Part shown: piece by piece, positions 17,895 through 49,274 of the stretch
How positions within the stretch are numbered: position 1 is the first letter of the stretch
Layout: every line of letters starts with the position of its first letter
Assembly (NCBI GenBank): GCA_964465575.1
Contig: CAYXIF010000004.1
Coordinates: 12,212-76,211, forward strand
DNA length: 64,000 nucleotides
From: an uncultured Candidatus Bathyarchaeia archaeon
GTDB lineage: Archaea; Thermoproteota; Bathyarchaeia; Bathyarchaeales; DTEX01
Direction: 5' to 3'
Notes under the pieces: generated by a model
What the model was told of the DNA's origin: nothing
Databases searched by the model: none
Seen by the model: only the letters and a program-made list of their open reading frames with translations
Position numbers and translations under genes: made by a program

Positions 17895-18392
17895 ATGAAA
17901 GATCAGTCTGCGGGACCAAAGCTTAAGAAAGCACCATGGCTATCTCAGGTGTGCGTGAGACCGATGCCGATACAGTACTCAGAGGCGCAAGATGTCAAGC
18001 AACTAGTTGATGAGATCACAGAGATCCTAGACCTTTACCATGTTGTTCCTCAGTTCGTTTACTGCGTTCGCAGCAAGGGTTCTCGATCCACCCGCACTAT
18101 AGCCCGCATTCACGGTTTAGGGAAGATATGGCAAGAGGCTCTTCGCCGCCCGCCTTCCTACGCGATTGAGGTCATTTCAGAACAGTATGACATGCTGGGC
18201 GAGGGAGAGAAAGAGAAAACGTTGATCCATGAGCTCCTTCACATACCAAAAGGGTTCAAGGGAGGCTTCAGACCACACAAAGGCCTTGTTGACCAAAAAT
18301 CTGTGGAGAGTCTCTTCAGGAGACTGCAGGAACAAAGGACGATCAGAAGGCGAAACGACAAGGAACACCAAGATTCAGAGTTGCATCCGTAG
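17895..18392 (+). CDS. Predicted zinc metallopeptidase (HExxH)
   Basis: 165 aa with LIHELLHIPKGFKGGFRPH. Resembles small archaeal predicted metallopeptidases; the family was not verified. Confidence 0.45.
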   Translation: MKDQSAGPKLKKAPWLSQVCVRPMPIQYSEAQDVKQLVDEITEILDLYHVVPQFVYCVRSKGSRSTRTIARIHGLGKIWQEALRRPPSYAIEVISEQYDMLGEGEKEKTLIHELLHIPKGFKGGFRPHKGLVDQKSVESLFRRLQEQRTIRRRNDKEHQDSELHP

Positions 18393-18923: not shown

Positions 18924-19661
18924 CTAAAGGCTTGACCATTCAGTGTTGTTTTTCGAGATGTCTTCCCAGCACCTTTGGCAGATGGGTGTCATCCGTCCGT
19001 TGTAGTAGATGCTCAGCTCAATATCACTACTTCTGCAGTCTGGCTTCCACGGATTCATGCAGTGCACCCGAGACGACGTGGGACTTTCAAGCTTAGACGG
19101 TTCCTTTGTGATCACCCTCTTGCGCTTGTTGAAAGATTGCCTGTCAGTCTTTTTCTCGCATTCTTCTTCTTCGTCTTTGGGGAGAGATTCCCTCTCGGCT
19201 TCTGTCTCTAGCTTAGCCCCGACCTTGCTAGAAGAGTGTTCCTCCAGCTTGGTTTGGATAGGAAGGGCTGGCTCTGACCCTATCCTTGCTGATGTAGTCT
19301 CTCTGCTCCTAGCAGAGTCAAGTCCAAGGCTGATGATTCTGCTCCTCTGCTTCCAATACTCCTCCCCAATCTCTCCTAGGCGGTATCTAAGTTCAAGCTC
19401 CACAAGGACACTCTCAAGGATCCTCGTTTTTTCTGAAAGCCTGTCCTTCCAGAACGCTTCCTCTTTCTCCAGCGTTTCCTTCAAGTCTAAGGCAATATGT
19501 GCTACGCGGTCGACCTGCTTCTCCATGAAGTCAAAGGTGGTGACAGAGATTCTTCCGTTCTGCAGTAGTTTCTTTAGAGCCTCTTTCCTCTTGTCTCCCG
19601 ACCTGATGTAGAAATCGAGAGCGCTGACTACCTTGGAGAAACTCATCCAAGCCCAGCCCAT
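18924..19661 (-). CDS. Coiled-coil protein with C-terminal zinc-ribbon-like Cys pairs (possible CdvA-like coiled coil)
   Basis: Heptad-rich segment ALKKLLQNGRISVTTFDFMEKQVD...LELRYRLGEIGEEYWKQRSRIISLGL, an acidic/basic low-complexity linker, and C-terminal HCMNPWKPDC...ICQRCW. Start at ATG 19661 is preferred (TATA-like gttttaac 22-29 nt upstream); the track start is 19793. Confidence 0.35.
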   Translation of the reverse strand: MGWAWMSFSKVVSALDFYIRSGDKRKEALKKLLQNGRISVTTFDFMEKQVDRVAHIALDLKETLEKEEAFWKDRLSEKTRILESVLVELELRYRLGEIGEEYWKQRSRIISLGLDSARSRETTSARIGSEPALPIQTKLEEHSSSKVGAKLETEAERESLPKDEEEECEKKTDRQSFNKRKRVITKEPSKLESPTSSRVHCMNPWKPDCRSSDIELSIYYNGRMTPICQRCWEDISKNNTEWSSL

Positions 19662-19862
19662 CTTAGGAGGCGGGGAGGGAGTTAAAACTTCTTTCCAACA
19701 CGCCTGCATATCACGCGATATTATGCTGCGGGGCTTTGGCTGGAACCTGATGATAAGCCAAGATGAAAAACTGCGGCCTCTCTGGCGAAACATATCATCA
19801 AACAGTAAAAAGATGCCGAACGTATGTTGTGAGACCTTGAGGAAGCTTGCCTAAGACTATTC

Positions 19863-21046: not shown

Positions 21047-24000
21047 TTGTCGTTGAACAAGAGGGATGTCAGTTACTGCGAGGATTGCTTGGTCGTCTGC
21101 GGCCAAGACGTGTACGTTTATGGCGGAGAGATCCACTACTTCAGGATTCCGAACGAGCTCTGGCTGGACCGTCTTTTGAAAGCCAAACGGTGCTTTTTGA
21201 ACACAATAGGGGCTTACGTGGCTTGGAACTGGCACGAGGAAAAGGAAGGTGTGTTCGACTTTTCTGGAGACCATGACCTAGACCGCTTCCTCGAGATATG
21301 CAAGGAATTGGGTCTCTATGTAATAGTGCGTCCTGGTCCCTATATCTGTGCGGAATGGGATGGAGGAGGGTTTCCGGCATGGATCTGGACCAAGAAGATG
21401 GCATATAGATCCACAGACCCAGCATTCCTAGGACAAATCTCAAGATGGTATGATATGATCTGTCCGATCGCAAGGAGACACCTTGTCACACAGGGAGGAT
21501 CCACGATACTCTTCCAGATTGAGAATGAATACTTCTGGGGCAACGTTCCCTACCTTCTTAGAATGGCTGAGATTGCCAAGGAAAGGGGGATCACTGTTCC
21601 CATAGTTCATAACGTTGACAGGCCTTTGCGAGGAACCAACGTGATAGACTCGCTAGACTTCTATCCCTCCGTGTGGCAGATAGAAGGAGTGCAGACAGGC
21701 ATCGACTTGCTTATAGAAGAGCAACCCGGCAAGCCTCCGATCGTCATGGAGCTAGAAGGCGGATGGTTCTCGGTATTTGGCGGATCACTGCCTACAGCTA
21801 GAGGTAGCTTCCCCGCAGAGTGGACTGACATACTAGCCAAGACCTGTATAGCCAAGGGCATAAACGGGATAAACTTCTATATGTTTCACGGTGGAACCAA
21901 CTTCGGATACTGGACGGCAAAGGGCATAACGACAACCTACGACTGCGAAGCTGCCGTTCGAGAATGGGGTGAGCTCGGCGAACGTTACTGGGTCGTGAGA
22001 CTTATCGGCGGGTTCCTCAAGTCATTCGGCAATATTCTAGTTCACTGCAAGCCTGCCGAAGGGCTCGTGGAATCATCGAACAATAATGTCGATGTATTCT
22101 GCAGAGAAGGCGAGAGAGGCTCGTTCATATTCGTCAGAAACATGGGGGAAGATGCCGGGTCAGTGAGACTTAGGACATCCCTAGTCGAGTTCGGTGAGAT
22201 CCCAGTTGAAGGAAGCATCCATCTGACGCCAAGATCGATGCTCGCATTGCCCGTCAACTGCTATCTTCGGAAGCCTGAGGCAACACTAGCCTACTCGACA
22301 TCGCAAGTCTTCCTGATTACAGAGATGAAGGACCGCACAGTTCTCGTTTTGTATGGATCGAAAGGCACACAAGGTGAGCTGTGCCTTAGGCTTGAAGAGA
22401 AACCTGTGGTTGTGGGCGACATAAGGCATGAATGGAATAGCAGACATAAGGTACTTCGGCTTAATTATGTTCATCCAGATACCGAGAAGGTCTTTTTGGT
22501 TCGACTTAGAGCGCCCCTTGAGCTTATCATAACCAACGAAGAGAGAGCGGCCAGAACTTGGCTTCCCTGCTTCGGTGACGAGGAGATGCCGATGGTCTCG
22601 AACCTTTACTTCCTGAGGGAGTGGGAAGTCCGAGACCAGTCTATCAGCCTCCTCGCTGAGCTCGAGCCGCAAAAGCGAACGGAAATCAGCATAGTTGTAC
22701 CCAGAAAGGTACGAGATGTAATGGTGAATGTGCGCAGAATCGGCTTCTCCCATGACAAAGACACCTCTATCCTTTCGTTCTCCCTTACCACTAAAGAGTC
22801 ACCGAACTTAGTCCAGAACCTGAACGGTACATGGAAAGCAAGAGCTGAACTCTTAGCAAAAGAGGTCGACTATGACCATTCTCAATGGCAGAGTTGGATT
22901 CCTGGAATGCCGCTAGAAGCTTTAGGCTACATGAAGAACGGGTACTCTTGGTATAGGTGCGCGTTCAAAGCGCCTCAAACGATGAAGAACGCGGTTCTTA
23001 GCATTCCCGAGATAAGGGATTGCGGAATAGTTTTCGTTAACGGCAAGTTTGTCGGAAAAGGAATAGGGAAGATCTCAGTAGATATTGGGGACACATTGAA
23101 GAAAGACGAAGAAAACGTGCTTGCAATCTGTGTTGAAAGTGTCGGGCACTGCAACATTCCCTGCCTGACAAAGGATGGCAACGGAATTCTATCTCCTGTG
23201 TATCTTTCAGAGGAGGAGAAGGTTGAACTGAGGGACTGGAAGCTCAGGATCGCCTCGGTTGAGATGAAGCCAGGGCTCCCAACTTCGATTGACGTTTCCC
23301 GAATGCTCATGAACAACGAAACCCCAGAGGAAGTCTTGCCCATCACAAATGACAGGGAATGGGAAACCCTCATGATCTCCTCCCCGGAAGAGCTGACCAA
23401 GAGATTCTCAGCTGAAGCAGATCGGCTCAAGATTCTCTGGCTCCGAGCTTGGGTGCGCATCCCAAAGAAGCATAAAGGGAAGTCCGCAGTTCTGAGTCTT
23501 AAGAACATGAGGCCTGGAACATACAAGCTCTACGTCAATGGTGCCGTCAGATCTTTTTCGAGCTGGACCATGAGTGCATCTGGTTTGGCAGGGACGGTTG
23601 ACATCGACATAACCGAATCAGTAAAGCTGGGGGAACCAAACCTTCTAGCTTTGGCCCTTTACACAATGAATGCTCTCCCAACACCCTTGCCCCGAAGCTT
23701 TCCCGAACTAGTCATCTACGGTCACAGAATCGAGGGAGATTGGAAGGTAACAGAAGGCTTACATGGTGAACGCGAAAAGTGGTTCTCACCTGAACTAGAC
23801 GACTCAGACTGGGAAGAGGTCCAAGCTTTCAGGTTACAGAAAGATCTAAGGTCACCTTTCAACGGGATCATCTGGTATAGGAAGAGATTCAGACTCAAAG
23901 GCGATCCGGAGTATGTCGCTCCCCTAAGGCTCACTCTCAATGAGGTCAAGTCGAAGTGCCTGATATATCTGAACGGGCATTTGGTCGGACGATATGCCGA

Positions 24001-24166
24001 TATCGGTCCTCAGAAAGATTTCTACTTGCCAGAGCCTTGGCTGAAGCAAGAGAACGTACTTGCATCAGCTGTTGAGTGCTTCGAAAGAGACGGAATGACT
24101 GGTGACATAGTAGTCTCGCCTTACTACGTTAGGGAAAAGGCGGAAATCAGAATCGAACTGGGATGA
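21047..24166 (+). CDS. Glycoside hydrolase family 35 beta-galactosidase, large multidomain, no signal peptide
   Basis: GH35 blocks YVAWNWHEEKEGVFDFSG, RPGPYICAEWDGGGFPAW and FQIENEY, followed by about 650 aa of beta-sandwich-like C-terminal sequence. Confidence 0.85.
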   Translation: MSLNKRDVSYCEDCLVVCGQDVYVYGGEIHYFRIPNELWLDRLLKAKRCFLNTIGAYVAWNWHEEKEGVFDFSGDHDLDRFLEICKELGLYVIVRPGPYICAEWDGGGFPAWIWTKKMAYRSTDPAFLGQISRWYDMICPIARRHLVTQGGSTILFQIENEYFWGNVPYLLRMAEIAKERGITVPIVHNVDRPLRGTNVIDSLDFYPSVWQIEGVQTGIDLLIEEQPGKPPIVMELEGGWFSVFGGSLPTARGSFPAEWTDILAKTCIAKGINGINFYMFHGGTNFGYWTAKGITTTYDCEAAVREWGELGERYWVVRLIGGFLKSFGNILVHCKPAEGLVESSNNNVDVFCREGERGSFIFVRNMGEDAGSVRLRTSLVEFGEIPVEGSIHLTPRSMLALPVNCYLRKPEATLAYSTSQVFLITEMKDRTVLVLYGSKGTQGELCLRLEEKPVVVGDIRHEWNSRHKVLRLNYVHPDTEKVFLVRLRAPLELIITNEERAARTWLPCFGDEEMPMVSNLYFLREWEVRDQSISLLAELEPQKRTEISIVVPRKVRDVMVNVRRIGFSHDKDTSILSFSLTTKESPNLVQNLNGTWKARAELLAKEVDYDHSQWQSWIPGMPLEALGYMKNGYSWYRCAFKAPQTMKNAVLSIPEIRDCGIVFVNGKFVGKGIGKISVDIGDTLKKDEENVLAICVESVGHCNIPCLTKDGNGILSPVYLSEEEKVELRDWKLRIASVEMKPGLPTSIDVSRMLMNNETPEEVLPITNDREWETLMISSPEELTKRFSAEADRLKILWLRAWVRIPKKHKGKSAVLSLKNMRPGTYKLYVNGAVRSFSSWTMSASGLAGTVDIDITESVKLGEPNLLALALYTMNALPTPLPRSFPELVIYGHRIEGDWKVTEGLHGEREKWFSPELDDSDWEEVQAFRLQKDLRSPFNGIIWYRKRFRLKGDPEYVAPLRLTLNEVKSKCLIYLNGHLVGRYADIGPQKDFYLPEPWLKQENVLASAVECFERDGMTGDIVVSPYYVREKAEIRIELG

Positions 24167-25613: not shown

Positions 25614-25950
25614 GACGGCGGGTCTTAGGCGGGGGGCTAGGGGTCCCTTGAGAGGCTACGTGAGCTTCATCCGTAAATCCCCTATACGACGGGCCGAGAT
25701 CCGAGGCGAGGCTCAGAAGATCATGGGGCGCCTTAGCCGTCCATCTATGAGCATCCGTCCTCTTGGGCTGACGGTCGCGGGAGTGTCCTTCGTAAGGAGG
25801 ACGCAAATGCGTTTGCCAGGTGAATCTGGCCAGGACCGGGAGGGAGCAACCTAAGCTTGGACGTTCAGCGCTCAGAGGGGTGCGGGTGTGAGTGAAGAGG
25901 CTGAAGGAACCCTTTGAACACTATGCGTCGGACCCCGGTGACCCGCCGTC
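25614..25950 (+). ncRNA. Signal recognition particle RNA (archaeal 7S RNA)
   Basis: Helix-8 signature CCAGGACCGGGAGGGAGCAACC (compare E. coli 4.5S CAGGUCCGGAAGGAAGCAGCC) with a GGGA GNRA loop. G-rich Alu-domain 5' segment GGCGGGGGGCUAGGGGUCCC. 5' GACGGCGGGUC pairs with 3' GACCCGCCGUC. T-rich tract follows. Ends uncertain by about 10 nt. Confidence 0.8.
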
Positions 25951-27942: not shown

Positions 27943-28842
27943 TCACGCAAGGATATCGTGAAGGAAAACTTTCATAGGACCAAACTTCCCGCCATAGTTG
28001 CCTGCCGATATTCTGACGATGCCTGGAACCTTAACTGCAACTCTTATGCCTTCAGCCATGGCTTTCTTGATACAGTCTAAGTTAAGCCCGTTTACCACGA
28101 TCTCGTAAACGCTGTTGGCGTCCTTGGGAACCAAGCTATCGGGGATCTTCTCTTTAAGTTTGGGACAGAAGGGATGATTTGTTGAAGCTGGAAGCTTGTA
28201 CTTTAAAGACCCAACCTTTGAGCCAGACCTACAGACTCCGCCCGGGAAGGGCATGATCACGCCTTCCACTTTGCTGCGGATCGACTCGACAGCTTCCTCT
28301 GCTGCTTTGAGCCCTGATGGCATGTCCTTGGCGAAGATGAGAAAGTTTCCTCCAGCGACTGCTTTTGCCGTGCCGAAGCTGCTTTCAACGATGAACTCAC
28401 CCTCCATCACTGGGATACGCCAGACCGTTCTGCCCGCAAGCTCGTCTTTCTTCTGGAAACCATCGCCAAAGAAGCGGAGGCTTCTGCCTACCTTCAATCT
28501 CCGAGTAGCCTTGGGCAGACCGTTAAAGGCCGCTGTTGTGGGGCAAGTCATCACGCACTGGCCGATCCTCGCGATCATCTGCTTCTTGAGGTCCCTTCGG
28601 CTAGTGTGGTATATCTGGATAAGAGTACCAATCCTGCCATCTGGAGTTTCGCTGGCAGGCACAAGGCGTTCTATGCCCGCCTCAGCTGGTGAGCCTATGA
28701 TTGATGAGCCGTACCCTGTGGCGACCTTGGCCGCTGTCAAGGCCCACTTCTCGTTCTGAGCGGTTATCAAAACCCTCCCAACCCACATTTCAAAGAGCTC
28801 TGCGAACGTGTCTTCAACCTCGACGCCATTAAGATCAAACAT
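27943..28842 (-). CDS. ftr: Formylmethanofuran:tetrahydromethanopterin N-formyltransferase
   Basis: MFDLNGVEVEDTFAELFEMWVGRVLITA...ETPDGR closely follows the Ftr N-terminal pattern. ATG 28842 follows a GAGGTG RBS; the track start is 28893. Confidence 0.9.
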   Translation of the reverse strand: MFDLNGVEVEDTFAELFEMWVGRVLITAQNEKWALTAAKVATGYGSSIIGSPAEAGIERLVPASETPDGRIGTLIQIYHTSRRDLKKQMIARIGQCVMTCPTTAAFNGLPKATRRLKVGRSLRFFGDGFQKKDELAGRTVWRIPVMEGEFIVESSFGTAKAVAGGNFLIFAKDMPSGLKAAEEAVESIRSKVEGVIMPFPGGVCRSGSKVGSLKYKLPASTNHPFCPKLKEKIPDSLVPKDANSVYEIVVNGLNLDCIKKAMAEGIRVAVKVPGIVRISAGNYGGKFGPMKVFLHDILA

Positions 28843-29005
28843 ATGCCGCACCTCAGCGATACGTACCCTGGATCCGCTAGATTCATGACACAACTTTGGC
28901 GTAATGGTACGTGCGCCAACCTTTTAAGTTTAGTGACGTGGAAAAGTATCGTAAAGCTGAAGTACTCAGAGTCACATATTGTCCGTTGGGAGCGTCTCAA
29001 CCTTT

Positions 29006-33535: not shown

Positions 33536-35575
33536 ATGGAGGCTACATTCTCACTTGCTGATACTCGGAGGTGCACCGCGCTCGGAAAGGTTCTGGTCAC
33601 TGCAGCGTGGCCGTACATCCAACACGTGCTTCATCTAGGGAACCTCTTGCCTATCCTCTCGGCCGATGTGATTGCCAGATATCACCGACTTAAGGGAGAT
33701 GAAGTCCTTTTCGTGAGTGGATCGGATGTGCATGGAACACCTATAGAAGTTGAGGCTGTAAGACAGGGAATCTCGCCCAAGGAACTGACAGAACGAAACC
33801 ACCGGGCAGTGTCTCAGTTGTTCGAGAAATGGGCGATCTCCTTCGACAACTACACCCACACGGAAAGTGCTGTCCACAAGGAATTCGTGAGAGACTTCCA
33901 CCGCAAAGTAGAGAAAAACGGATACGTCTTCACTCAAGAGACCGAGCTGCCATACTGCAAGAAATGCGAACGGTTTCTGCCCGACAGGTTCGTCGAGGGC
34001 ACATGCCCATACTGTGGGGACAAGGGTGCCAGAGGAGACCAGTGCGAACAGTGTGGCAGACTTCTAGACCCAACAAAGGTCATAGAAGCCCACTGCACAA
34101 TCTGCGGAACACGACCCGCTTTCCGCTACGTAATCCACTGGTACTTCGACCTCCCAGTGTTCGCTGAGCGACTTCTAGCGTTCATTGAGAACAACAAACA
34201 GCTTCCTGACAATGCCCGCAACTTCAGCCTGAACTACATTAAAGAAGGGTTGAAGCCACGACCTTTGACTAGAGACAGTGAATGGGGGATACCTGCGCCT
34301 TACAACGGCGCTGATGGCAAGACCCTCTATGTCTGGTTCGAGAACGTTCTGGGCTACATCTCGGCGACGATCGAATACTTCATTAGGCACGGGGTCCCTG
34401 AGAAGTGGAGAGAATACTGGTTTGACAAAGACGCGAAAACCCTCTTCTTCATAGGCAAGGACAACATCCCCTTTCATACACTGATTTTCCCAGCGCTCTT
34501 GCTCGCTACTAACGAAGGGTACAACCTTCCGTGGAACATAAGCACAAACGAGTTCCTGAACTTCGAGGGACAAAAGTCATCAAAGAGTCGCAGAGTCGGA
34601 GTCTGGATTGACGAAGCCCTTGAGACATTCCCAGCTGACTATTGGAGATACACGCTCATCGCAATACGCCCTGAGACCAAAGACACAGACTTCACTTGGA
34701 AGACGTTTCTCGAGAAAGTGAACTCAGACCTTAACGATACTTTGGGGAACTTCGTTCACCGCACGCTCAAGTTCATCAACAGCTACTACAAAGGGAGGAT
34801 TCCTGAACCCAGCGAACTAGACGGCCTTGACAATCAAACACTCCAGTCAGTTCACAAGACCTTTGGGGAAGTAGATAGAGCGTTACAGGGGATCCTACTG
34901 CAGACAACGGTCCGCCAAATCATCGAGCTGAGTCGCGAAGGAAACAGGTATCTCAACGAGAAGAAGCCTTGGAAGACCAGCAAAACAGACCCGAAGTCGA
35001 CTGCGAACACCTTGTTTGTTGCAGCTCAGATCGTCAGCGCTCTTTCAGTGTTGATTGAACCGTTCACGCCTTTCACAGCTAGGGAACTTCGTGGCTTCCT
35101 GAACCTGCCCGAGAAAGTGCAGTGGCAAGACGCCATCAAACTGGTTCCCGCAAATCACAAGATAAAAGAGGCTGAGCCCCTCTTCCGCAAGGTAGAGGCT
35201 TCAGAAGAAGGATTGGAGGAAATGGTAGAGAAAGCTAGATCGGCTTCGCAGAAGGTATCGTTCGCAGATTTTTCAAAGCTCGATATTCGTGTCGGAAAAA
35301 TAGTTAAGGCCGAAAAAGTCCCCAGATCAAGCAACCTGTTTAAACTCAGTATCGACATCGGCAGCCCCAATCTGAAAACAGCTGTAGCCGGGATTGCCAG
35401 GTACTACGCTCCCCAAGAGCTCGAGGAACGCCAGATAGCCGTGATAGTGAACTTGGAACCTAGGAAGATATTCGGGATCGAGTCCAACGTCATGATCCTC
35501 GCAGCACAGGACGAGAAGAGCGTTGTGATACTTCAGCCTGAAAAGCCTATCAAGACCGGAAGCGAGATAAGCTAG
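33536..35575 (+). CDS. metG: Methionyl-tRNA synthetase with C-terminal tRNA-binding (Trbp111/EMAP-like) domain
   Basis: Zn knuckles CKKC...CPYCG...CEQCG...CTICG, KSSKS (KMSKS position) and C-terminal FSKLDIRVGKIVKAEKV. The HIGH position reads HLGN. Confidence 0.93.
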   Translation: MEATFSLADTRRCTALGKVLVTAAWPYIQHVLHLGNLLPILSADVIARYHRLKGDEVLFVSGSDVHGTPIEVEAVRQGISPKELTERNHRAVSQLFEKWAISFDNYTHTESAVHKEFVRDFHRKVEKNGYVFTQETELPYCKKCERFLPDRFVEGTCPYCGDKGARGDQCEQCGRLLDPTKVIEAHCTICGTRPAFRYVIHWYFDLPVFAERLLAFIENNKQLPDNARNFSLNYIKEGLKPRPLTRDSEWGIPAPYNGADGKTLYVWFENVLGYISATIEYFIRHGVPEKWREYWFDKDAKTLFFIGKDNIPFHTLIFPALLLATNEGYNLPWNISTNEFLNFEGQKSSKSRRVGVWIDEALETFPADYWRYTLIAIRPETKDTDFTWKTFLEKVNSDLNDTLGNFVHRTLKFINSYYKGRIPEPSELDGLDNQTLQSVHKTFGEVDRALQGILLQTTVRQIIELSREGNRYLNEKKPWKTSKTDPKSTANTLFVAAQIVSALSVLIEPFTPFTARELRGFLNLPEKVQWQDAIKLVPANHKIKEAEPLFRKVEASEEGLEEMVEKARSASQKVSFADFSKLDIRVGKIVKAEKVPRSSNLFKLSIDIGSPNLKTAVAGIARYYAPQELEERQIAVIVNLEPRKIFGIESNVMILAAQDEKSVVILQPEKPIKTGSEIS

Positions 35576-35602: not shown

Positions 35603-36283
35603 GTGAGCATTTTGCCGCTCAAGATTGACCTTCACGTTCATACGAGCTACTCTCACGACTGCCTGACAAGCCTCGATAGCGTGATCTCTTTTGCACAGAA
35701 ACGACGCTTAAACGGTGTTTCCATAGCAGATCATGATACAATTGAAGGCGCTCTAAGACTCCTAGAGATGGCGGGCACAGGGTTGATCATAATCCCAGGG
35801 ATCGAGGTGTCAACAAGCCAAGGGCACCTACTGGGCATCAATGTTACCACGCCAATCCCTCGGGGACTTAGCATAGTGGAAACCGCTGCCAGAATACACG
35901 AAGCCGGCGGTATTGCTGTCGCTGCTCACCCGTCTTCGCCATTCAAACATGCTATAGGCCTTGACGAACGACTCATCTCATACGGTGTGGACGCGGTTGA
36001 GACTGTCAATTCAACGAATTTCCCGTTCTTTCTACTGAACTACTTGGACAAGCGGCTCGCCAGACGCACAGGGCTTCCGGTGACTGGAGGAAGCGACGCC
36101 CACTTACCTGAGGCCATAGGACTAGGCTACACTTTGATAGATGAAACGGGAACTGAAACAGACATTGACGCTGTGGTCCAAGCCATCAAGAGGGGAAGGT
36201 GCGTTCCCATTGGTAGGCCAATGCCGTGGAGACTGAGGCTGCGGAAGATTACACTAATGAGCAGTAAGCCTCCTGCGCACTAG
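35603..36283 (+). CDS. PHP-domain metal-dependent phosphoesterase
   Basis: IDLHVHTSYSHDC, ADHDT and GGSDAH motifs. Confidence 0.75.
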   Translation: MSILPLKIDLHVHTSYSHDCLTSLDSVISFAQKRRLNGVSIADHDTIEGALRLLEMAGTGLIIIPGIEVSTSQGHLLGINVTTPIPRGLSIVETAARIHEAGGIAVAAHPSSPFKHAIGLDERLISYGVDAVETVNSTNFPFFLLNYLDKRLARRTGLPVTGGSDAHLPEAIGLGYTLIDETGTETDIDAVVQAIKRGRCVPIGRPMPWRLRLRKITLMSSKPPAH

Positions 36284-37380
36284 AGCTGGTACAGGCCTAG
36301 GTCCATGGTTAGGGGCTTCACAGTTTCTTCGGCGGCATCCAACTCGTAGATCTCGGGTACAGCTGAACCGTATCCGCCGTACACGTACTGGGATCGGACC
36401 CCAGTCATGACGAGCGTGACTTTCAGGTTTCCCGCTAGGCTTGGGTCGACTCTGGCCCCCCAGATGATCAGAGCATCATCGCTCATCATTTGGGTAACGA
36501 TTTCGCCTACTCTATTGGCTTCGTCTATGGTCATCTGCTCGTCGCCTGAAACGTGGATTAAAGCTCCTTTCGCGCAGGTATAGTCGACATCTAGCAAAGG
36601 CATGTCCAAAGCTTTCTGCACTGCTTCTTCGGCTCTGTTGGGCGCGTCTGATTGCCCCACACCAGCCACAGATATGCCACCCTTCTTTACGATTGTTCTG
36701 AAATCCGCGAAGTCTAGGTTTATCAAGCTCGGCGCGGAAACTATCTCAGTGATTCCCGCGATCATGTTCGCCAAGACACCGTCCCCAACTCTGAAGGCTT
36801 CATTTAGCGGCAGCTGTGGAACGAGACGTATCAGCTTGTTGTTATCTATCACTATGACAGTGTCACATTCCCTTCGCATTTCGGTAAGCCCCTTAACGGC
36901 GTAGGCGATCCTTCCCTTTTCAATCTTGAAAGGCATTGTTACAACCCCGATGACAATGGCCGCCTTGTCCCTAGCCATCCTAGCAACAACAGACGCGGCA
37001 CCTGTGCCAGTCCCACCTCCCATGCCAGCTGTGACGAAGACTATGTCCACATCCTCCAGAACTTTTCCAACTAGCTCAGCGGACTCCTCAATCGCTGCCC
37101 TTCCAACGCGAGGGTCTCCACCTGAACCCAGTCCACGTGTTAGCTTTTCTCCAATCAGGATCTTCTGCTTCGCGTGTGTGGCTTTCAAGTGTTGCATATC
37201 AGTATTGATGGCGATGCATTCAGCGCCCACAATATTGGACTCAGTCAGACGACTCACCGTGTTGTTTCCCGCCCCCCCAACGCCCAGAACCATTATCCGA
37301 CAGGAGCCGGGCTCCCGAAGCCCTTCAGGGATCGTCTCGTCCCACGTGAATTGCAGCGCCTTGTCAGCTATCTTTGTCAT
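36280..37380 (-). CDS. ftsZ: Cell division GTPase FtsZ (canonical motifs)
   Basis: VLGVGGAGNNTV, tubulin signature AGMGGGTGTGA and T7 loop NLDFADF. ATG 37380 (MTKIADK) is preferred over the track start at 37410. Confidence 0.93.
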   Translation of the reverse strand: MTKIADKALQFTWDETIPEGLREPGSCRIMVLGVGGAGNNTVSRLTESNIVGAECIAINTDMQHLKATHAKQKILIGEKLTRGLGSGGDPRVGRAAIEESAELVGKVLEDVDIVFVTAGMGGGTGTGAASVVARMARDKAAIVIGVVTMPFKIEKGRIAYAVKGLTEMRRECDTVIVIDNNKLIRLVPQLPLNEAFRVGDGVLANMIAGITEIVSAPSLINLDFADFRTIVKKGGISVAGVGQSDAPNRAEEAVQKALDMPLLDVDYTCAKGALIHVSGDEQMTIDEANRVGEIVTQMMSDDALIIWGARVDPSLAGNLKVTLVMTGVRSQYVYGGYGSAVPEIYELDAAEETVKPLTMDLGLYQL

Positions 37381-37528
37381 CCTTTTCCCTTCCCCATAGC
37401 TCCATGGCAATCAAGTCCCTGATGGCCACGCGGATAGCTTCCGCTCTATGCGGATAGTACCGCTTGTTCACCAGCTCCTCGAGTGCCTCCAAGTATGGTT
37501 CGGGAAGATATATTGTGATGAGTTTCAC
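37364..37528 (-). CDS. Small ribbon-helix-helix (CopG/CdrS-like) DNA-binding protein, overlaps ftsZ start
   Basis: Not in ORF track (54 aa). Own translation from GTG 37528, with GGTGAG RBS at 37531-37537: VKLITIYLPEPYLEALEELVNKRYYPHRAEAIRVAIRDLIAMELWGREKDDKDS. Classic RHH pattern (beta strand ITIYLP, then two helices). Stop TGA at 37364-37366, 17 nt inside ftsZ. Confidence 0.65.
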   Translation of the reverse strand: MKLITIYLPEPYLEALEELVNKRYYPHRAEAIRVAIRDLIAMELWGREKDDKDS

Positions 37529-40267: not shown

Positions 40268-41329
40268 TCAATGGGAGAAACCTTGCCGAAGTGTATTGAA
40301 CGAGGCTGGACCCTCTAGTAGGAACCTGCTACCCACGCCTGCCAGCACCAATGTCACACGAATGAAACCCGTCATGCTTGTGTCCACTCCGGTACCCCAT
40401 GAAACGTTGGCGTCAGGTGAAATCCTGCTCACGATCATCTCTCCTGCTTTGTTAAACTCCTCTAAGGTCATGTCGTCTCCCCCTTCAATGTTAACCAAGG
40501 CGGCTTGGCATTTGTCTATGTCTTCGATGTCGAGAAGCTGGGAGTCCAACGCTTTATGCACAGCGTCTTCAACCCTAGTCTGTCCTGAGCCTTCTCCTAT
40601 GCCCATGGCGCATACTCCACTTTCAGTCGCGATCGCCTTCAAGTCCGCGAAGTTCAAGTTCACAAGGCTTGGGTAAGATATTGCCTCCGATAGGCTTCTG
40701 ATGAAAGAAGCAATCAGATTGTTCGCGAGACCGAAAGATTCGATGATGGGCAAGTTGCCTGCGATTTTCCTAAGCCTATTATTATCAACGACGATGACAG
40801 CGTCACAGGTCTCGACGAGCCGCTCCAATCCTTTCTTGGCCTTTGCCAGCCTCGGTCCCTCAGCTAAGAAGGGAATCAAAACGACTCCAAAGGTCAGAAC
40901 CTGCATTTCCTTCGCGATCGTCGCCACAACGGGAGTAGCACCAGTCCCTGTTCCTCTCCCTAGTCCTGCAATCAGAAAGGACAGACCAGATCCTTTCAGC
41001 ACACTTGCTATTTCGATTGAACTTTCTCCTGCAACCCTTGCCCCTAGCTCTGGAGAGTCACCGCAACCAAGACCCCGACAGACATCGTATCCTAACAAGA
41101 TTTTCCTGTCGGCTGCAATCCTGCTCAGTTGCATGGCGTCGCTGTTCAATGCGTAGATTCTTGCGCCAAAGACGCCTTTTTCTTTGATCCAAGAAGCAAT
41201 ATTGCATCCCGCTCCTCCAATGCCCAGTACACTGATACGAGGGATAGACTCTGTGGCTATTTCCTCTATGCTCTTCTCACAGAATGCCTTGTCCCGGACT
41301 ATACTGGGTTCCTTGAGCTGTTCCGCCAA
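40268..41329 (-). CDS. FtsZ/tubulin-family paralog with degenerate GTPase motifs
   Basis: VLGIGGAGCNIASWI. The G-box reads AGLGRGTGTGA (Arg at codon 40955-40957) and the T7 loop reads NLNFADL (Asn at 40652-40654) instead of NxDFAD. Confidence 0.8.
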   Translation of the reverse strand: MAEQLKEPSIVRDKAFCEKSIEEIATESIPRISVLGIGGAGCNIASWIKEKGVFGARIYALNSDAMQLSRIAADRKILLGYDVCRGLGCGDSPELGARVAGESSIEIASVLKGSGLSFLIAGLGRGTGTGATPVVATIAKEMQVLTFGVVLIPFLAEGPRLAKAKKGLERLVETCDAVIVVDNNRLRKIAGNLPIIESFGLANNLIASFIRSLSEAISYPSLVNLNFADLKAIATESGVCAMGIGEGSGQTRVEDAVHKALDSQLLDIEDIDKCQAALVNIEGGDDMTLEEFNKAGEMIVSRISPDANVSWGTGVDTSMTGFIRVTLVLAGVGSRFLLEGPASFNTLRQGFSH

Positions 41330-43052: not shown

Positions 43053-43811
43053 CTAGATAAACAATGCCTTCTCCTTAGGCCATAGAAGGTCCTTTGCGGT
43101 TGCCTCTTCGGACTTCTGGTATGGGTATCCTCTGATTATGGCTGCTGGGATCCCTTCGTTCGCCTGTCCAATGACGAGCTCAGCGGCTGAAGTCAACTCA
43201 TCTGCAACGGCCGTCTGCTTGATTCTGAGGGTGTAGCCGAAGAGATCTGTTTCCCCTCTTCGGTCACGGATCGGTTTGATCCCCGCTACGCCTACAGCTA
43301 CGTTTATTTCTCCTCTTCGGAGTGCGCGACCATGCGTGTCTGAAATAATGACCGCAACGTTGTGGCCTGTTAATTCTCTTGTTCTCTGGCGGATTCGTTG
43401 GGCTGATTCATCAGGATTTTTCGGCAATGGCACTACGTTTCTCTCACCCGGCACGTTTGACCTATCAACCCCCGCGTTGGCGCATATGAAGCCGTGTTTG
43501 GTTTCAGCAATTATGTGGCCATTCCCCATGCGCACAATCGACTTGGATTCTCTTAGGACAACCTCAACCAACGCAGGATCCTTTTCAGACTCAGCTGCGA
43601 TAAACTTTGAGAAATCAGAGGGGCTTACATTGTCTAGGCTTATGACATTTCCCTCAGCCCGAGAGACTACGACATGGGTCACAACGATGATATCTCCTTC
43701 TTTCACAGGTGTACCTTGCTTCTCTGCGGCTGTGCATATTAACGCTCCGAGGTCATCACCTTCTCGGATGATTGGCAGACCTTTGACTGCAATCACCCCA
43801 ATGTCGCCCAT
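43053..43811 (-). CDS. cofE: Coenzyme F420-0:L-glutamate ligase
   Basis: GLPIIREGDDLGALI, ICANAGVDRSNV and SDTHGRALRRG blocks typical of CofE. Confidence 0.85.
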   Translation of the reverse strand: MGDIGVIAVKGLPIIREGDDLGALICTAAEKQGTPVKEGDIIVVTHVVVSRAEGNVISLDNVSPSDFSKFIAAESEKDPALVEVVLRESKSIVRMGNGHIIAETKHGFICANAGVDRSNVPGERNVVPLPKNPDESAQRIRQRTRELTGHNVAVIISDTHGRALRRGEINVAVGVAGIKPIRDRRGETDLFGYTLRIKQTAVADELTSAAELVIGQANEGIPAAIIRGYPYQKSEEATAKDLLWPKEKALFI

Positions 43812-43870
43812 ACAAGATGCCTCCAATTCTCTACTTTCATGATAGAAGGTGCTTTTATCCCTGACGAGTC

Positions 43871-44758
43871 TTATTTCCTTAGCTTCGGACCTTTCCCTTG
43901 GACAATGTACGGCATCTTCCTTGTTCTGAAGGCAACTAGTTTCTCATTGGACTCCATCAAGTAGGAGAGCAGAAGGTTCTTGCCATGTCTCGTCAATGCA
44001 AACACAGGGATCACAACGCCCACTTGAAGAAGAGCCTTCGGACCGATCCTTTCTCGCATGAGCCGAGACGCACTGGCACAGGCGATGTCTGCGCCTGCAA
44101 GGATCCTTTCAATGTCAGCTTCATCTGCGCAAGTATTGCAGACCGAGAATACGGATACTTCAGTGTTCATCTCTCTTTCCGCCCTTCGGATCGGTTCTAT
44201 CTGCGCCGAATTGAAGCTTGCCACGGTGACTGCGATACGGCGGAAACCAAGCTCGGCAGCTTTGATCACGCCTCGGCACTGGTCGATCTTCGCTGTTTCC
44301 TCATCAAGCACTATCCCCGAGTTTGACTTTATATATTGAATGTTGCTCACTATGGGCGAAGTCTTAATGATCCCGGTGAGTCTTGCGCCGATGGCTTGAA
44401 CAAGGTTGGGGTTGCTTGCTATGACTGTTCCGGCGCCATCACAGACCGTTACGGCGCAGTCAAGTAGCCCCCTCTTAAGGCATACTGACATGACTTCTGT
44501 GCTCCCGTAAGGAACCACCATCGAGTCATCGAAGATTCTATGCTCGCAGCAGAAGCCTGACTTCTTGGCCTTCAGCTTGACAGACCGTTTCACGGCGGTT
44601 TTGTCAAGCTTCTTAATTCCGTAAAGCGACTCGTGAAGTGGGCAATACGTGATCTTGGGTTCAGTTAGGACCTTGATCTTTCCGTCTTTGATCAGAACTC
44701 TCGAGCCGCAGCAGTAGAACTCGTGTTCGCCAACCAGCCTATATGGCATAGGTTCCAT
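43871..44758 (-). CDS. DUF2099-like protein (possibly methanogenesis-marker-8-related), function unknown
   Basis: Cys-rich N-terminus (FYCCGS, YCPLH, FCCEH) and a VCDGAGTVI block that I associate with DUF2099; not verified. ATG 44758 is preferred (TATA-like tttgatat about 24 nt upstream). Confidence 0.35.
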   Translation of the reverse strand: MEPMPYRLVGEHEFYCCGSRVLIKDGKIKVLTEPKITYCPLHESLYGIKKLDKTAVKRSVKLKAKKSGFCCEHRIFDDSMVVPYGSTEVMSVCLKRGLLDCAVTVCDGAGTVIASNPNLVQAIGARLTGIIKTSPIVSNIQYIKSNSGIVLDEETAKIDQCRGVIKAAELGFRRIAVTVASFNSAQIEPIRRAEREMNTEVSVFSVCNTCADEADIERILAGADIACASASRLMRERIGPKALLQVGVVIPVFALTRHGKNLLLSYLMESNEKLVAFRTRKMPYIVQGKGPKLRK

Positions 44759-44895
44759 AGAACTTCCCTTTCTTGGGCATATCAAATGTGCTGCCGCCCA
44801 TTTTACTCTTTGCGCCAGAACCCTAAACTGTCGAAGCAAACTTGGCTCAAAGCATGGCAGGAACAACCCTTGAGTTTATGGTAGCGGGGGGTCGA

Positions 44896-44924
44896 CTTTC
44901 CGGAGACCAGAGCCCTAGCCTCCT
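44896..44924 (-). other. tRNA intron 2 (non-canonical, T-loop 59/60, 29 nt)
   Basis: AGGAGGCTAGGGCTCTGGTCTCCGGAAAG. T stem / bulge AGU / helix UUCA:GGAA (3 WC plus A.G) / bulge AAA / helix GGAG:CUCC. Removal restores the T loop TTCAAAT. Exact junction ambiguous by 1-3 nt. Confidence 0.65.
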
Positions 44925-44946
44925 TTTGAACGACCGATCTCTGGGT

Positions 44947-44964
44947 CTCTCAGGCGAGGAGCCT
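44947..44964 (-). other. tRNA intron 1 (canonical 37/38 position, 18 nt)
   Basis: AGGCTCCTCGCCTGAGAG. Bulge-helix-bulge: anticodon stem / bulge AGA / helix CUCA:UGAG / bulge UAA / helix GGC:GCC. Confidence 0.8.
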
Positions 44965-45191
44965 TATGAGCCCAGCGGGTTAAACCTGGCTACCCCACCC
45001 CGCTACTTGTGTTACGCCTTTTCTTGCCAGTCGCCGGCTTATTCCACTGTGAAATACAAAGCTCTACAATAAAAGAGTTGCGACAACGGTTCTTACTTGG
45101 GTCTTTCGGAAAGCCTTCCTCTCGTCTGCCGTGGGAGAGCTTGAAAAATGATAAATCCACAGTCTCAGACTCTTGTAAGAGGGCAACATGA

Positions 45192-46367
45192 TTGGTTAAG
45201 GGGCTCAGCATCATCGAGAACGCTTCGCTCAAGAGGAAGCTAGCTCAACCTGTTCGTTCACGGGTCTTCGAAGTCATAGGACCGTATAAGATGCAGGAAC
45301 GCTGGGAAGAGATTACAGAGCTTCCAAGCAACTGTCTGCTCTTGGCAACGAGACTGACTGGAATCTGTCAAGCTGACCTAAGGTATGTGAACTGTTCCCG
45401 TTCACCCGAAATCCTGAGAGAACGTCTTCCATTGCCAATCTTTCATGAAGGCGTCGCCGAGGTCTTGGACGTAGGAGATGATATCCACGGGTTCTCTAAG
45501 GGCGACCTTGCCGTCATCGCGCCGAACATACCATGCTACCTGCATGATCCTTGGAAGTATCCGGATGTGTACCGAGCCTGCAGATCCTGCCGACCTGAAG
45601 GGGCTGGTGAGAACCTCTGTGAGGACGTCAGGTTCCTTTCCAGCAATGCACCGGGTCTTTCAAGAACATTGTTCGTTCATCTTGGGTCGTGCCTCTTCCC
45701 CATTTCTCTCGGTGTTCCCGAAGAGATTGCTGTGCTGACTGAGCCCTTGACCGTCGTAAACAGAGCCTTGAAGCAAGTCAGGGTCAACTTTGACGACCGT
45801 GTAGCCGTACTAGGCGGAGGGTTCATGGGTTACATCACTGCCACGATGCTTTCGAAAATTGTTGGGATACGCAAATCTGATCTGCTCGTGACCGACATCT
45901 TCGATTCCAAGCTCGAAAAGCTCCGAAGTTTCGCAACGACGGTCAACGTGAAGGAGACGCCGCTTGAGAAAGAGTTCGTGTCCATGTATGATGTAGCGTT
46001 TGAGTGTGCGGGTGGGAAGGCGTCCGAGATGACGATTGATCAGGCCCTTTCAGTTCTGTCTCCTGGCGGAAGATGTATGCTCATCGGTGTAAGCGAAGAT
46101 AAGATTCCGGTGGGGACGAGAACGGTTCTCGAGAAAGGCTTGACCCTCAAGGGCACAACAAGAAGTGCCGCTACAGACTTCCGCGAAGTTCTCGAATGGC
46201 TGAAAAAGGAAGACTTCAGAAAAGCCCTTCAGCAGGCTGTCTACCCCTACATGTTCCCCGCCACGAACTGTGAATCCTTACTCGCCGCATGTAAGGTAGC
46301 CGAGAACCGTGAAACCCACGGCAAAGTCCTGATAGATTGGCGCAAGGAAGTCGCAAGTAAAGGGTGA
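45192..46367 (+). CDS. MDR-family alcohol/polyol dehydrogenase-like protein
   Basis: GICQADLRY, HEGVAEV and Rossmann VLGGGFMGY. TTG start per track; substrate unknown. Confidence 0.6.
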   Translation: MVKGLSIIENASLKRKLAQPVRSRVFEVIGPYKMQERWEEITELPSNCLLLATRLTGICQADLRYVNCSRSPEILRERLPLPIFHEGVAEVLDVGDDIHGFSKGDLAVIAPNIPCYLHDPWKYPDVYRACRSCRPEGAGENLCEDVRFLSSNAPGLSRTLFVHLGSCLFPISLGVPEEIAVLTEPLTVVNRALKQVRVNFDDRVAVLGGGFMGYITATMLSKIVGIRKSDLLVTDIFDSKLEKLRSFATTVNVKETPLEKEFVSMYDVAFECAGGKASEMTIDQALSVLSPGGRCMLIGVSEDKIPVGTRTVLEKGLTLKGTTRSAATDFREVLEWLKKEDFRKALQQAVYPYMFPATNCESLLAACKVAENRETHGKVLIDWRKEVASKG

Positions 46368-47756: not shown

Positions 47757-49274
47757 ATGACGCCATACCTCATTGGAGTTGACCTTGGAACATCTGCATG
47801 CAAAACAGTAGTCTTCACCATGGAAGGCAGAAAAGTGTCTGAGGCTCAGAGAGAGTACCCTGTCTATCATCTCAAACCAAGGTGGGCTGAGCAGAAGCCT
47901 CTGGATTGGTGGAACGCTGCAGCCGAAACGTTAAGGGAGAGCCTTAAGAAAGCCAAGGTCATCGAGGACGAGATCGCGGGGCTATCAGTGGATTCCCAAA
48001 GGGAAGCCGTTGTTCCCATCGGGAAGAAAGGTGAGGAACTGTATAACAGCATAATCTGGCTGGACAACCGAACTGGCCCGCAGGTAGAAGAGATCAAGAA
48101 GCTCATAAGCGAAGAAAGAGTGCTATCGATCACAGGAATTAGCATTGACCCAATCTTCTCGGCTTCCAAGATACTCTGGCTCAAGGAGAACGTCCCAAGA
48201 GTCTACGAGGACACGGAGTGTCTTCTCTGCGCGAAGGACTACATCATCTACAAACTCTCGGGGGCGATGGTGACAGACTACTCCATGGCCTCGAGAACGT
48301 TGCTCTTCGATATCAGGAAACGCAAATGGTCGGAGAACGTATGCTCAACTATCGGCATACCCGTTGAGAAGCTTCCGCCGGCAAAGGAGTCATTGGCCGT
48401 CGTCGGAGAAGTCTCACATCAGGCTTCTGAGATTACTCTACTTCCCAAGGGGCTTCCCATTGTGAACGGGGGCGGAGACCGACCATGTGAGTGCCTGGGT
48501 GCTGGTGTAACCAACCCCGGACCTGTCAACATAGGAACTGGCACCGGCTCGGTTGTGGAGGTTCCTCTTAGCGAACCAGCGATCGACATTGAGGGAAGGC
48601 TTCACTGCTGTTGCCACGTCATCCCTGACACATGGGAGTATGAGGCCATAATCACGACCACAGGGGCCTCCTTGCGCTGGTTCAGGGACACACTCGGAAT
48701 CGAAGAGAAGATTGAAGCACGGAAAGCTGGGCAAGACCCCTACGACCTCCTGACTGAGAAAGCCACAAAGGTTCCCGCAGGTTCCGATGGTCTGTTTTTC
48801 TACCCCTATCTCACAGGCGCGTTCTCGCCCAAGTTCAATGAGAAAGCTCGGGGGGTCTACTTCGGCATTACTCTTTCGCACACAAAGGGGCACTTCGTTC
48901 GAGCTATATTGGAAGGGGTAGCCTTCCAGTATCTTGAGACCTTTGGGCTTTTGAAGGAGCTAGGCGTAAAGGTCAGAGAAGTCAGCATGGTTGGAGGAGA
49001 GACAAAGAGCGACCTCTGGAACCAGATCAAGGCCGACATATTTGGAAGAAGCATCCGGCTCCCAGGGGTTGAAGATGCCGCCGCACTGGGCGCGGCTCTC
49101 CTTGCCGGGACTGGTGTCGGACACTACACAAGTCTGCGTAAGGCGGCTGAGGATGCTGTAAGGATAGAAAGAGTTTACACGCCAAATCCTAAAGCCCAAA
49201 GGATGTACCGGAAAGTCTACGGGCACTATAGAAGAGCATATTCTTTCATAGAGAACGCTTACGAGATCTGCTAA
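47757..49274 (+). CDS. FGGY-family carbohydrate kinase (xylulokinase/glycerol kinase-like)
   Basis: IGVDLGTSACKTVVF phosphate-1 motif and GGGDRPCE / GGETKSDLWNQIKADIFG C-domain motifs. Confidence 0.85.
   Translation: MTPYLIGVDLGTSACKTVVFTMEGRKVSEAQREYPVYHLKPRWAEQKPLDWWNAAAETLRESLKKAKVIEDEIAGLSVDSQREAVVPIGKKGEELYNSIIWLDNRTGPQVEEIKKLISEERVLSITGISIDPIFSASKILWLKENVPRVYEDTECLLCAKDYIIYKLSGAMVTDYSMASRTLLFDIRKRKWSENVCSTIGIPVEKLPPAKESLAVVGEVSHQASEITLLPKGLPIVNGGGDRPCECLGAGVTNPGPVNIGTGTGSVVEVPLSEPAIDIEGRLHCCCHVIPDTWEYEAIITTTGASLRWFRDTLGIEEKIEARKAGQDPYDLLTEKATKVPAGSDGLFFYPYLTGAFSPKFNEKARGVYFGITLSHTKGHFVRAILEGVAFQYLETFGLLKELGVKVREVSMVGGETKSDLWNQIKADIFGRSIRLPGVEDAAALGAALLAGTGVGHYTSLRKAAEDAVRIERVYTPNPKAQRMYRKVYGHYRRAYSFIENAYEIC

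Follow-up and report, generated by a model that had tools for sequence, protein, structure and literature searches.

The DNA under study is a 64-kb stretch (64,000 nucleotides, hereafter the window, in whose coordinates all positions are given) of contig CAYXIF010000004.1 from an uncultured Candidatus Bathyarchaeia archaeon. On its minus strand, between a DUF2099 gene and a gene for an MDR zinc dehydrogenase, lies a tRNA gene of 126 nt (45004..44879), at exactly the coordinates given by an earlier model reading of the letters made without database searches (the sequence-only reading). Read on the minus strand, the 126 nt consist of AGCGGGGTGGGGTAGCCAGGTTTAACCCGCTGGGCTCATA (exon 1), AGGCTCCTCGCCTGAGAG (intron 1), ACCCAGAGATCGGTCGTTCAAA (exon 2), AGGAGGCTAGGGCTCTGGTCTCCGGAAAG (intron 2) and TCGACCCCCCGCTACCA (exon 3), and both introns are bounded by bulge-helix-bulge (BHB) motifs. 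The locus is very probably a functional initiator tRNA-Met gene of this archaeon that carries two BHB introns, and it is probably the only copy in the genome. The gene, its parts and its immediate surroundings are as follows.

44879..45004, minus strand: whole initiator tRNA-Met(CAU) gene (126 nt), made up of three exons and two introns and running from the mature 5′ end to the encoded CCA.
44965..45004, minus strand: exon 1, covering tRNA positions 1-37 in 40 nt (5′ strand of the acceptor stem, D arm including the 11-nt D-loop, 5′ strand of the anticodon stem, CUCAUA).
44947..44964, minus strand: intron 1, 18 nt, AGGCTCCTCGCCTGAGAG, at the canonical 37/38 site, with a strict hBHBh′ motif.
44925..44946, minus strand: exon 2, covering positions 38-59 in 22 nt (3′ strand of the anticodon stem, variable loop AGAUC, 5′ strand of the T stem, UUCAAA).
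44896..44924, minus strand: intron 2, 29 nt, AGGAGGCTAGGGCTCTGGTCTCCGGAAAG, at the T-loop 59/60 site, with a relaxed BHB.
44879..44895, minus strand: exon 3, 17 nt (U60, the 3′ strands of the T and acceptor stems, A73 and CCA at 44881-44879).
45061..45083, minus strand: conserved 23-nt element TCGCAACTCTTTTATTGTAGAGC, located 57-79 nt upstream of the mature 5′ end.
43871-44758, minus strand: DUF2099 neighbour (E 9e-83).
45192-46367, plus strand: MDR zinc dehydrogenase neighbour.

Removal of both inserts left 79 nt, in which ARAGORN recognized a perfect tRNA-Met(CAT) cloverleaf. The spliced 79-mer contains an acceptor stem of 7 bp that begins with A1:U72, a D arm (4-bp stem, 11-nt loop), the anticodon stem CUGGG:CCCAG, the T stem GGUCG:CGACC, the T-loop UUCAAAU, A73 and the encoded CCA. 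The A1:U72 pair, an initiator determinant in archaea and eukaryotes, was read directly from the sequence and is invariant across 25 aligned relatives. The initiator signature G29-G31:C39-C41 was likewise read directly in the anticodon stem, and three consecutive G:C pairs in this stem are near-universal in initiators (PMC7531240). Comparison with intron-less Bathyarchaeia orthologues such as L004 showed that the spliced product of the window differs from them by one D-loop base; L004 itself scored 59.8 bits on the Rfam tRNA model RF00005, for which the gathering score is 29. The single-base difference from intron-less orthologues, together with dozens of related genes that have the same junctions, excludes chance as the source of this structure. 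As an initiator, the product would be charged by MetRS and bound by aIF2.

The splice motifs of the two introns, all on the minus strand, are made up of the following elements.

Intron 1, bulges and flanking helices: stem CUGGG:CCCAG (5 bp), bulge UAA (44966-44964), bulge AGA (44948-44946), intron helix GGC:GCC.
Intron 1, central helix: CUCA:UGAG, four Watson-Crick pairs, 44970-44967 with 44952-44949, strict 3-4-3.
Intron 2, bulges and flanking stem: T stem GGUCG:CGACC (5 bp), bulge AAA (44926-44924), bulge AGU (44897-44895).
Intron 2, central helix: UUCA:GGAA (44930-44927 with 44901-44898), relaxed 3-4-3, with the pairs U-A, U-A and C-G and the mismatch A57·G.
Intron 2, intron hairpin: GGAGGC(UAG):(CUG)GUCUCC, 6-9 bp.

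The predicted cut position in both introns is after the second bulge nucleotide (marked by a slash: A-G/A and U-A/A in intron 1, A-G/U and A-A/A in intron 2), and the junctions are unambiguous. The hBHBh′ motif is defined as having a helix of 2 bp or more on either side, h towards the exon and h′ towards the intron (PMC7714728); here the anticodon stem and the T stem, of 5 bp each, serve as h, and h′ measures 3 bp in intron 1 and 6-9 bp in intron 2. Every structural feature that was tested was found at the locus, both those expected of an archaeal initiator tRNA and those of a tRNA gene with several BHB introns, including the presence in one gene of at least two BHB introns, at least one of them outside 37/38 (here 37/38 and 59/60). 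The sequence-only reading had described a minus-strand cloverleaf after removal of 18 nt at 37/38 and 29 nt at ~59/60, an initiator identity based on A1:U72 and G29-31:C39-41 with an encoded CCA, the BHB elements AGA/CUCA:UGAG/UAA (strict) and AGU/UUCA:GGAA/AAA (slightly relaxed), and DUF2099-like and MDR dehydrogenase neighbours. The ARAGORN result on the spliced 79-mer bears out the cloverleaf, the identity elements, the CCA and the BHB elements are all present in the sequence as described, and family matches agree with the neighbours.

The comparative evidence comes from two scans whose counts are samples rather than totals. A pattern of the 5′ exon, run over one genome per GTDB species, returned at least 120 loci, and the matches listed are nearly all from metagenome-assembled genomes (MAGs) of Bathyarchaeia/Bathyarchaeota; since the pattern ended at CTCATA, it has no bias regarding introns. 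The second scan, of metagenomes, was restricted to initiator-type 3′ ends that contain a T-loop insert; it gave at least 119 further loci and yields no frequencies. The intron content of the 117 genome loci that were parsed, among the matches listed, is as follows.

No intron: 68 of 117 loci (58%).
Intron at 37/38 only: 40 of 117 loci.
Introns at 37/38 and 59/60: 4 of 117 loci (L013, L041, L074, L108).
Intron at 59/60 only: 2 of 117 loci (L040, L042).
Introns at 37/38 and at a variable-loop site, ~47/48: 3 of 117 loci (L058, L060, L088).

One more gene, L113, has introns at all three sites and stands outside the 117 because its contig ends inside the gene. When the distinct Bathyarchaeia-type sequences of both scans were pooled, at least 25 of them (the window included) were found to have the exact two junctions of the window, at least 20 to have the T-loop intron alone and at least six to have three introns. 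Altogether, the 59/60 junction with the same bulge geometry occurs in more than 50 distinct Bathyarchaeia-type genes. The third recurrent site, in the variable loop (AGAU/.../CGG), holds a conserved insert of ~25 nt (AGCAGUC...GCUGCCUCUAA) and was seen in L058, L060, L088, L113, L125, L141, L144, L149, L152, L164 and L241, several of which have three introns. Five complete Bathyarchaeia chromosomes are in the sample: four have one pattern match each, which is intron-containing (L050, L068, L117, L119), and the fifth (L101) is intron-less.

The 25 distinct two-junction genes were aligned with MAFFT and scored against the structure read from the window. Standard pairs fill 95.4% of the pair cells, a value that fell to 54% or less when the partners were slid by 1-3 columns. 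Both-sided changes were found at 11 pairs, including all nine pairs of the intron hairpins (three in intron 1 and six in intron 2), and none of 500 shuffles reached the observed covariation score. At the A57·G position the alignment has A:U in 21 genes and a non-pair in four, and the G variant of the window was also seen in eight or more further distinct sequences (L125, L128, L130, L144, L188, L206, L214, L241). Given this recurrence in related genes, the A·G variant looks tolerated rather than a lesion.

The 23-nt element TCGCAACTCTTTTATTGTAGAGC upstream of the gene was found at an equal distance upstream of the initiator gene in the window, L060, L159, L213, L230, L236, L239 and L241, the last of which lacks the ADH neighbour. 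The motif matched 16 times in the 3.4 Mb of sequence scanned on both strands. Judged by its conservation, the element is probably a B recognition element (BRE)/TATA promoter with a leader of ~40 nt. The gene order ADH2-ADH1-tRNA-DUF2099-CofE-MobA is common to the window and L060, a Bathyarchaeia MAG, with proteins 62-77% identical. The recorded gene calls for DUF2099 and CofE begin at codons other than ATG 44758 / TTG.

Intron content differs among these loci. At syntenic loci with the same promoter element, introns are present at 37/38 and 59/60 in the window, L230 and L236 and at 59/60 only in L159 and L239; among loci with this element, L060 has introns at 37/38 and the variable-loop site and L241 at all three sites. 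The sequence-only reading had placed such genes mainly in Thermoproteales and some other members of the archaeal TACK group (Thaumarchaeota, Aigarchaeota, Crenarchaeota, Korarchaeota) and had valued the intron pair as a lineage marker. The TACK assignment was right, as the 5′ exon matches almost only Bathyarchaeia MAGs and the flanking proteins are syntenic with those of a Bathyarchaeia MAG. The intron pair, in contrast, is a weak marker, because syntenic relatives have different intron sets and 58% of the sampled initiator genes, among the matches listed, are intron-less; the lineage marker is the exon sequence. The differing intron sets at orthologous loci, a difference in intron 1 of the contig L244 described below and candidate genes with four inserts raise the possibility that the initiator tRNA gene of Bathyarchaeia is a hot spot of ongoing gain, loss and replacement of BHB introns, a reading that we hold tentatively, at a little less than an even chance. 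If the intron differences reflect recent mobility, and not ancient polymorphism or assembly chimeras, the gene would offer a natural system for the spread of archaeal tRNA introns. There is a modest evolutionary interest in an essential gene whose intron content varies even between syntenic relatives.

The initiator candidates with four inserts, which come from metagenomes, are L123, L126, L187 and L209 (also L190, L223 and L232). After removal of four segments and addition of CCA for the test, ARAGORN called tRNA-Met(CAT) in all four of the first-named candidate genes; the published maximum for an archaeal tRNA is three introns (PMC4033280). A further insert, near acceptor-stem position 4/5 (AGCG/AGAG.../GGGTGGGG), was noticed in L135, L157, L165, L175, L178, L180, L186, L215, L220 and L228, and these genes have an upstream leader with GGCGGGG...CCGT that could pair into a motif. 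Copies of the 3′ part only, consisting of the T arm with the 59/60 intron and the acceptor 3′ strand with no recognizable 5′ part upstream, were found as second matches in L157 and L184, where they lie ~2 kb from the full gene, and in L154 and L174; possible explanations are split genes, permuted genes or duplicated attachment sites of integrated elements. Bathyarchaeia-type initiator genes also turned up in bins labelled Acidoferrum, Baldrarchaeota, Methanocella and Acidiferrales bacterium (L015, L025, L028, L088), probably as a result of bin contamination or mislabelling.

The identical 126-nt gene is present on two independent metagenome contigs of the Joint Genome Institute (JGI), Ga0315309_1001389 and Ga0315307_1001647, which span both flanks and are 99.96-99.98% identical to the window over 7-8.8 kb. 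Since two independent assemblies contain the same gene, the locus is not an assembly artefact. Logan short-read contigs from several runs break inside the tRNA: L001 and L002 start at window position 44978, and L245 and L246 at 44953. Such breaks are expected, because the conserved exons are common to co-occurring strains, and the combination of conserved exons and divergent introns fragments short-read assemblies at the locus. Another Logan contig, L244 (ERR12264625), matches the window downstream of intron 1, intron 2 included (positions 1-125 against window 44870-45010; 99.8% overall identity), and differs in the D-loop base and in a 22-nt intron 1; it represents a strain whose intron has been replaced, or else a de Bruijn chimera.

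Some of the Logan contigs could be taken to mean that the two-intron gene is an assembly chimera joined inside a conserved tRNA exon, as four of them (L001, L002, L245, L246) end inside the tRNA and, in L244, downstream sequence that is otherwise identical is joined to a different intron 1. However, the two JGI assemblies span ADH1-tRNA-DUF2099 with the identical gene, the same gene order recurs in L060, and even after a join of this kind exons 2-3 and both introns would still lie on a single piece; a chimera is extremely improbable. It is also highly unlikely that the locus is a decaying or redundant pseudogene copy whose work is done by an intact intron-less initiator tRNA elsewhere. That idea draws on the A·G mismatch in the T-loop BHB, on the failure of ARAGORN and Rfam to see the locus, and on the fact that only 64 kb of the genome is in view, so that a second, intron-less initiator gene is possible outside it. 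Against it stand intact exons that form a perfect cloverleaf one D-loop base away from intron-less orthologues, a promoter-like element and a synteny conserved with relatives whose sole detected initiator gene sits here, the same architecture in many species with compensatory changes, and the recurrence of the A·G variant in at least eight distinct genes. Moreover, no second CTCATAACCC or GGGCTCATA initiator-like site was found within the window, and in four of the five complete Bathyarchaeia chromosomes sampled the single pattern match is an intron-containing gene.

Besides the limited view of the genome, several results weigh against a functional gene with two spliced introns, and most of them concern folding. 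The lowest-energy structure predicted for the precursor itself speaks for such a gene: all four tRNA stems (acceptor, D, anticodon, T) are retained and each insert forms a hairpin (-59.1 kcal/mol, z = -2.5). The BHB-compatible fold, however, reaches -51.9 kcal/mol and its central helices have a low ensemble probability, so that the BHB conformer is not thermodynamically favoured. For intron 1, ViennaRNA favours a register shifted by two bases via the GAGAGA tract (-17.2 kcal/mol vs -12.9 kcal/mol for the BHB). The T-loop BHB contains the A·G mismatch, and its three other central pairs have an ensemble probability of 0.06 or less. In addition, no EndA gene was detected in the 64-kb window, there being no tRNA_int_endo Pfam match among its 58 open reading frames (ORFs) of at least 90 aa (47 scanned in the window, the other 11 covered by precomputed families on contig L001). 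Thermodynamic preference, on the other hand, is not a defining property of a BHB, as it is the enzyme that picks the conformer. In relatives that have GAGTGA or GAGAAA the shifted register is impossible, yet the BHB register is retained, and we therefore take the BHB register to be the one under selection; as folding energy does not single out the BHB conformers, we rely on the comparative evidence. The same results bear on the notion that only the 37/38 intron is removed and that the T-loop insert is poorly spliced or otherwise handled, with little or no mature tRNA made. The central helix of intron 2, with only three Watson-Crick pairs and negligible predicted occupancy, speaks for it. But the 59/60 junction is conserved in more than 50 distinct genes, in ~20 of which the T-loop insert is the only intron, the intron hairpin covaries, and relaxed or non-canonical motifs are cleaved by (αβ)2 and ε2 enzymes (PMC7714728, PMC5829648, PMC4033280). 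A failure of T-loop splicing is therefore very improbable, and the reading of the locus as a functional initiator gene with two BHB introns is preferred.

Processing of the transcript of such a gene would rest on the established archaeal pathway (PMC4090602, PMC7714728). The gene would be transcribed from the conserved TATA-like element ~70 nt upstream, and in the folded precursor the four tRNA stems (acceptor, D, anticodon and T) would be in place, with each insert standing out as a hairpin. EndA would then cut after the second nucleotide of each 3-nt bulge, at four bulge sites, at 37/38 and 59/60, and an RtcB-type ligase would join the exons of 40, 22 and 17 nt, which the tRNA helices may keep together. 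RNase P and tRNase Z would trim the ends, the CCA being already encoded. The endonucleases that cleave motifs of the non-canonical and relaxed kinds are of the (αβ)2 and ε2 types, found mostly in TACK archaea and ARMAN (archaeal Richmond Mine acidophilic nanoorganisms) (PMC7714728, PMC5829648, PMC4033280). Because of the T-loop position and the relaxed helix of intron 2, it is a reasonable inference that the gene depends on a broad-specificity endonuclease, either (αβ)2 or ε2, and translation initiation in this archaeon would then depend on an endonuclease that cuts a relaxed T-loop motif. A tblastn search with Methanocaldococcus jannaschii EndA, a query whose match to PDB 1A79 (371 bits) validated it, found nothing in the window or in 250 loci.

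The structure of the gene has consequences for annotation. ARAGORN, with or without its intron option, detected no tRNA in the unspliced window, and Rfam, at gathering and at permissive E-values, detected none at the unspliced locus. When the T-loop insert alone was removed, ARAGORN in intron mode reported tRNA-Met with an 18-nt intron, i(41,18). ARAGORN had been proposed by the sequence-only reading as a check on the locus; the program was negative on the unspliced DNA and called tRNA-Met after removal of the inserts. A genome annotated with standard tRNA finders or Rfam would thus seem to be without an initiator tRNA, and the gap also covers ~8% of the sampled Bathyarchaeia initiator genes, those with an intron outside 37/38 (9 of the 117 parsed among the matches listed, plus L113). 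Explaining an apparently missing initiator tRNA is of practical value for annotation. The possibility that an intron contains a C/D-box guide RNA, as in the euryarchaeal tRNA-Trp intron, was considered and rejected: the introns measure only 18 and 29 nt, and the one match to Rfam sR41 (E 9.5), on the opposite strand of the region, is at chance level and was regarded as noise.

The remainder of the window, which has ~51% G+C, contains several other features. An archaeal signal recognition particle RNA at 25616-25948 (plus strand; 127.7 bits) is the sole Rfam family above threshold in the window; a sub-threshold match to the C/D-box small nucleolar RNA model ceN89 at 48672-48734 (plus strand; 25.3 bits, E 0.5) lies inside an FGGY kinase ORF and is probably due to chance. 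A methionyl-tRNA synthetase gene at 33536-35575 (plus strand) lies ~9 kb from the initiator tRNA gene, with no evidence of a functional link, and a class I synthetase of 1119 aa (tRNA-synt_1, Anticodon_1, DUF5915) is encoded at 14365-17724 (minus strand). Two FtsZ paralogues are found within 5 kb (36280-37410 and 40268-41329, both on the minus strand), and a 289-aa ORF at 18924-19793 (minus strand) has only a weak CdvA-like coiled-coil match (E 0.0024). A GH35 beta-galactosidase of 1039 aa (21047-24166, plus strand) and a small protein of a 'phage metallopeptidase' family (17895-18392, plus strand) both stand in an archaeal context. The minus strand also carries a fibrillarin and Nop5 pair of the C/D-box ribonucleoprotein (2554-4450), a formylmethanofuran:tetrahydromethanopterin (H4MPT) formyltransferase gene (27943-28893) and an F420 gamma-glutamyl ligase gene (43053-43826). 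This gene set fits an archaeon that uses methanogen-type cofactors (H4MPT, F420).

Multi-intron tRNA genes with non-canonical positions, which the sequence-only reading had presented as a feature of TACK archaea, are indeed established there. Position 59/60 is a published non-canonical intron site (PMC4090602), and up to three introns per gene, at non-canonical positions, are documented in Thermoproteales and other Crenarchaeota (PMC4090602, PMC4033280). The surprise value of the find is lower than that reading had claimed, given this listed site and the precedent of Thermofilum pendens. The layout is already known from related archaea, which makes this a sound but ordinary find. No paper on tRNA introns in Bathyarchaeia was found in the literature searched; the finding extends multi-intron, non-canonical tRNA genes to an abundant and mostly uncultured class and leaves the known working of such introns unchanged.

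The closest precedent is the initiator tRNA-Met(CAU) gene of T. pendens, which is disrupted at the same two positions, 59/60 and 37/38 (PMC3218864, Table 1; Chan et al., 2011). The T. pendens gene is a circular permutation at 59/60, in which the 3′ piece precedes the 5′ piece, and has an intron at 37/38, whereas the gene described here is collinear and has an ordinary 29-nt intron at 59/60; BHB processing is inferred for both, one gene belonging to Thermoproteales and the other to Bathyarchaeia. Multi-intron genes of Thermoproteales, such as the tRNA-Pro(UGG) gene of Pyrobaculum islandicum, whose introns occupy 25/26, 37/38 and 56/57 (Sugahara et al., 2007, 2008; reviews: PMC4090602 and PMC4033280), resemble the window gene in combining canonical and non-canonical BHB introns, in their relaxed motifs and in an intron content that varies between close relatives, but they belong to another archaeal class and to another tRNA. 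The initiator tRNA-Met of Nanoarchaeum equitans likewise needs EndA at a 37/38 BHB (PMC3218864, Table 1); its halves come from separate loci and are joined in trans, whereas the window gene would give one transcript with introns in cis. The T-loop permuted tRNAs of Cyanidioschyzon merolae share the BHB junction at 59/60 with the window gene (PMC3218864, PMC3728597), but they are encoded by eukaryotic nuclear genes and are permuted rather than intron-containing.

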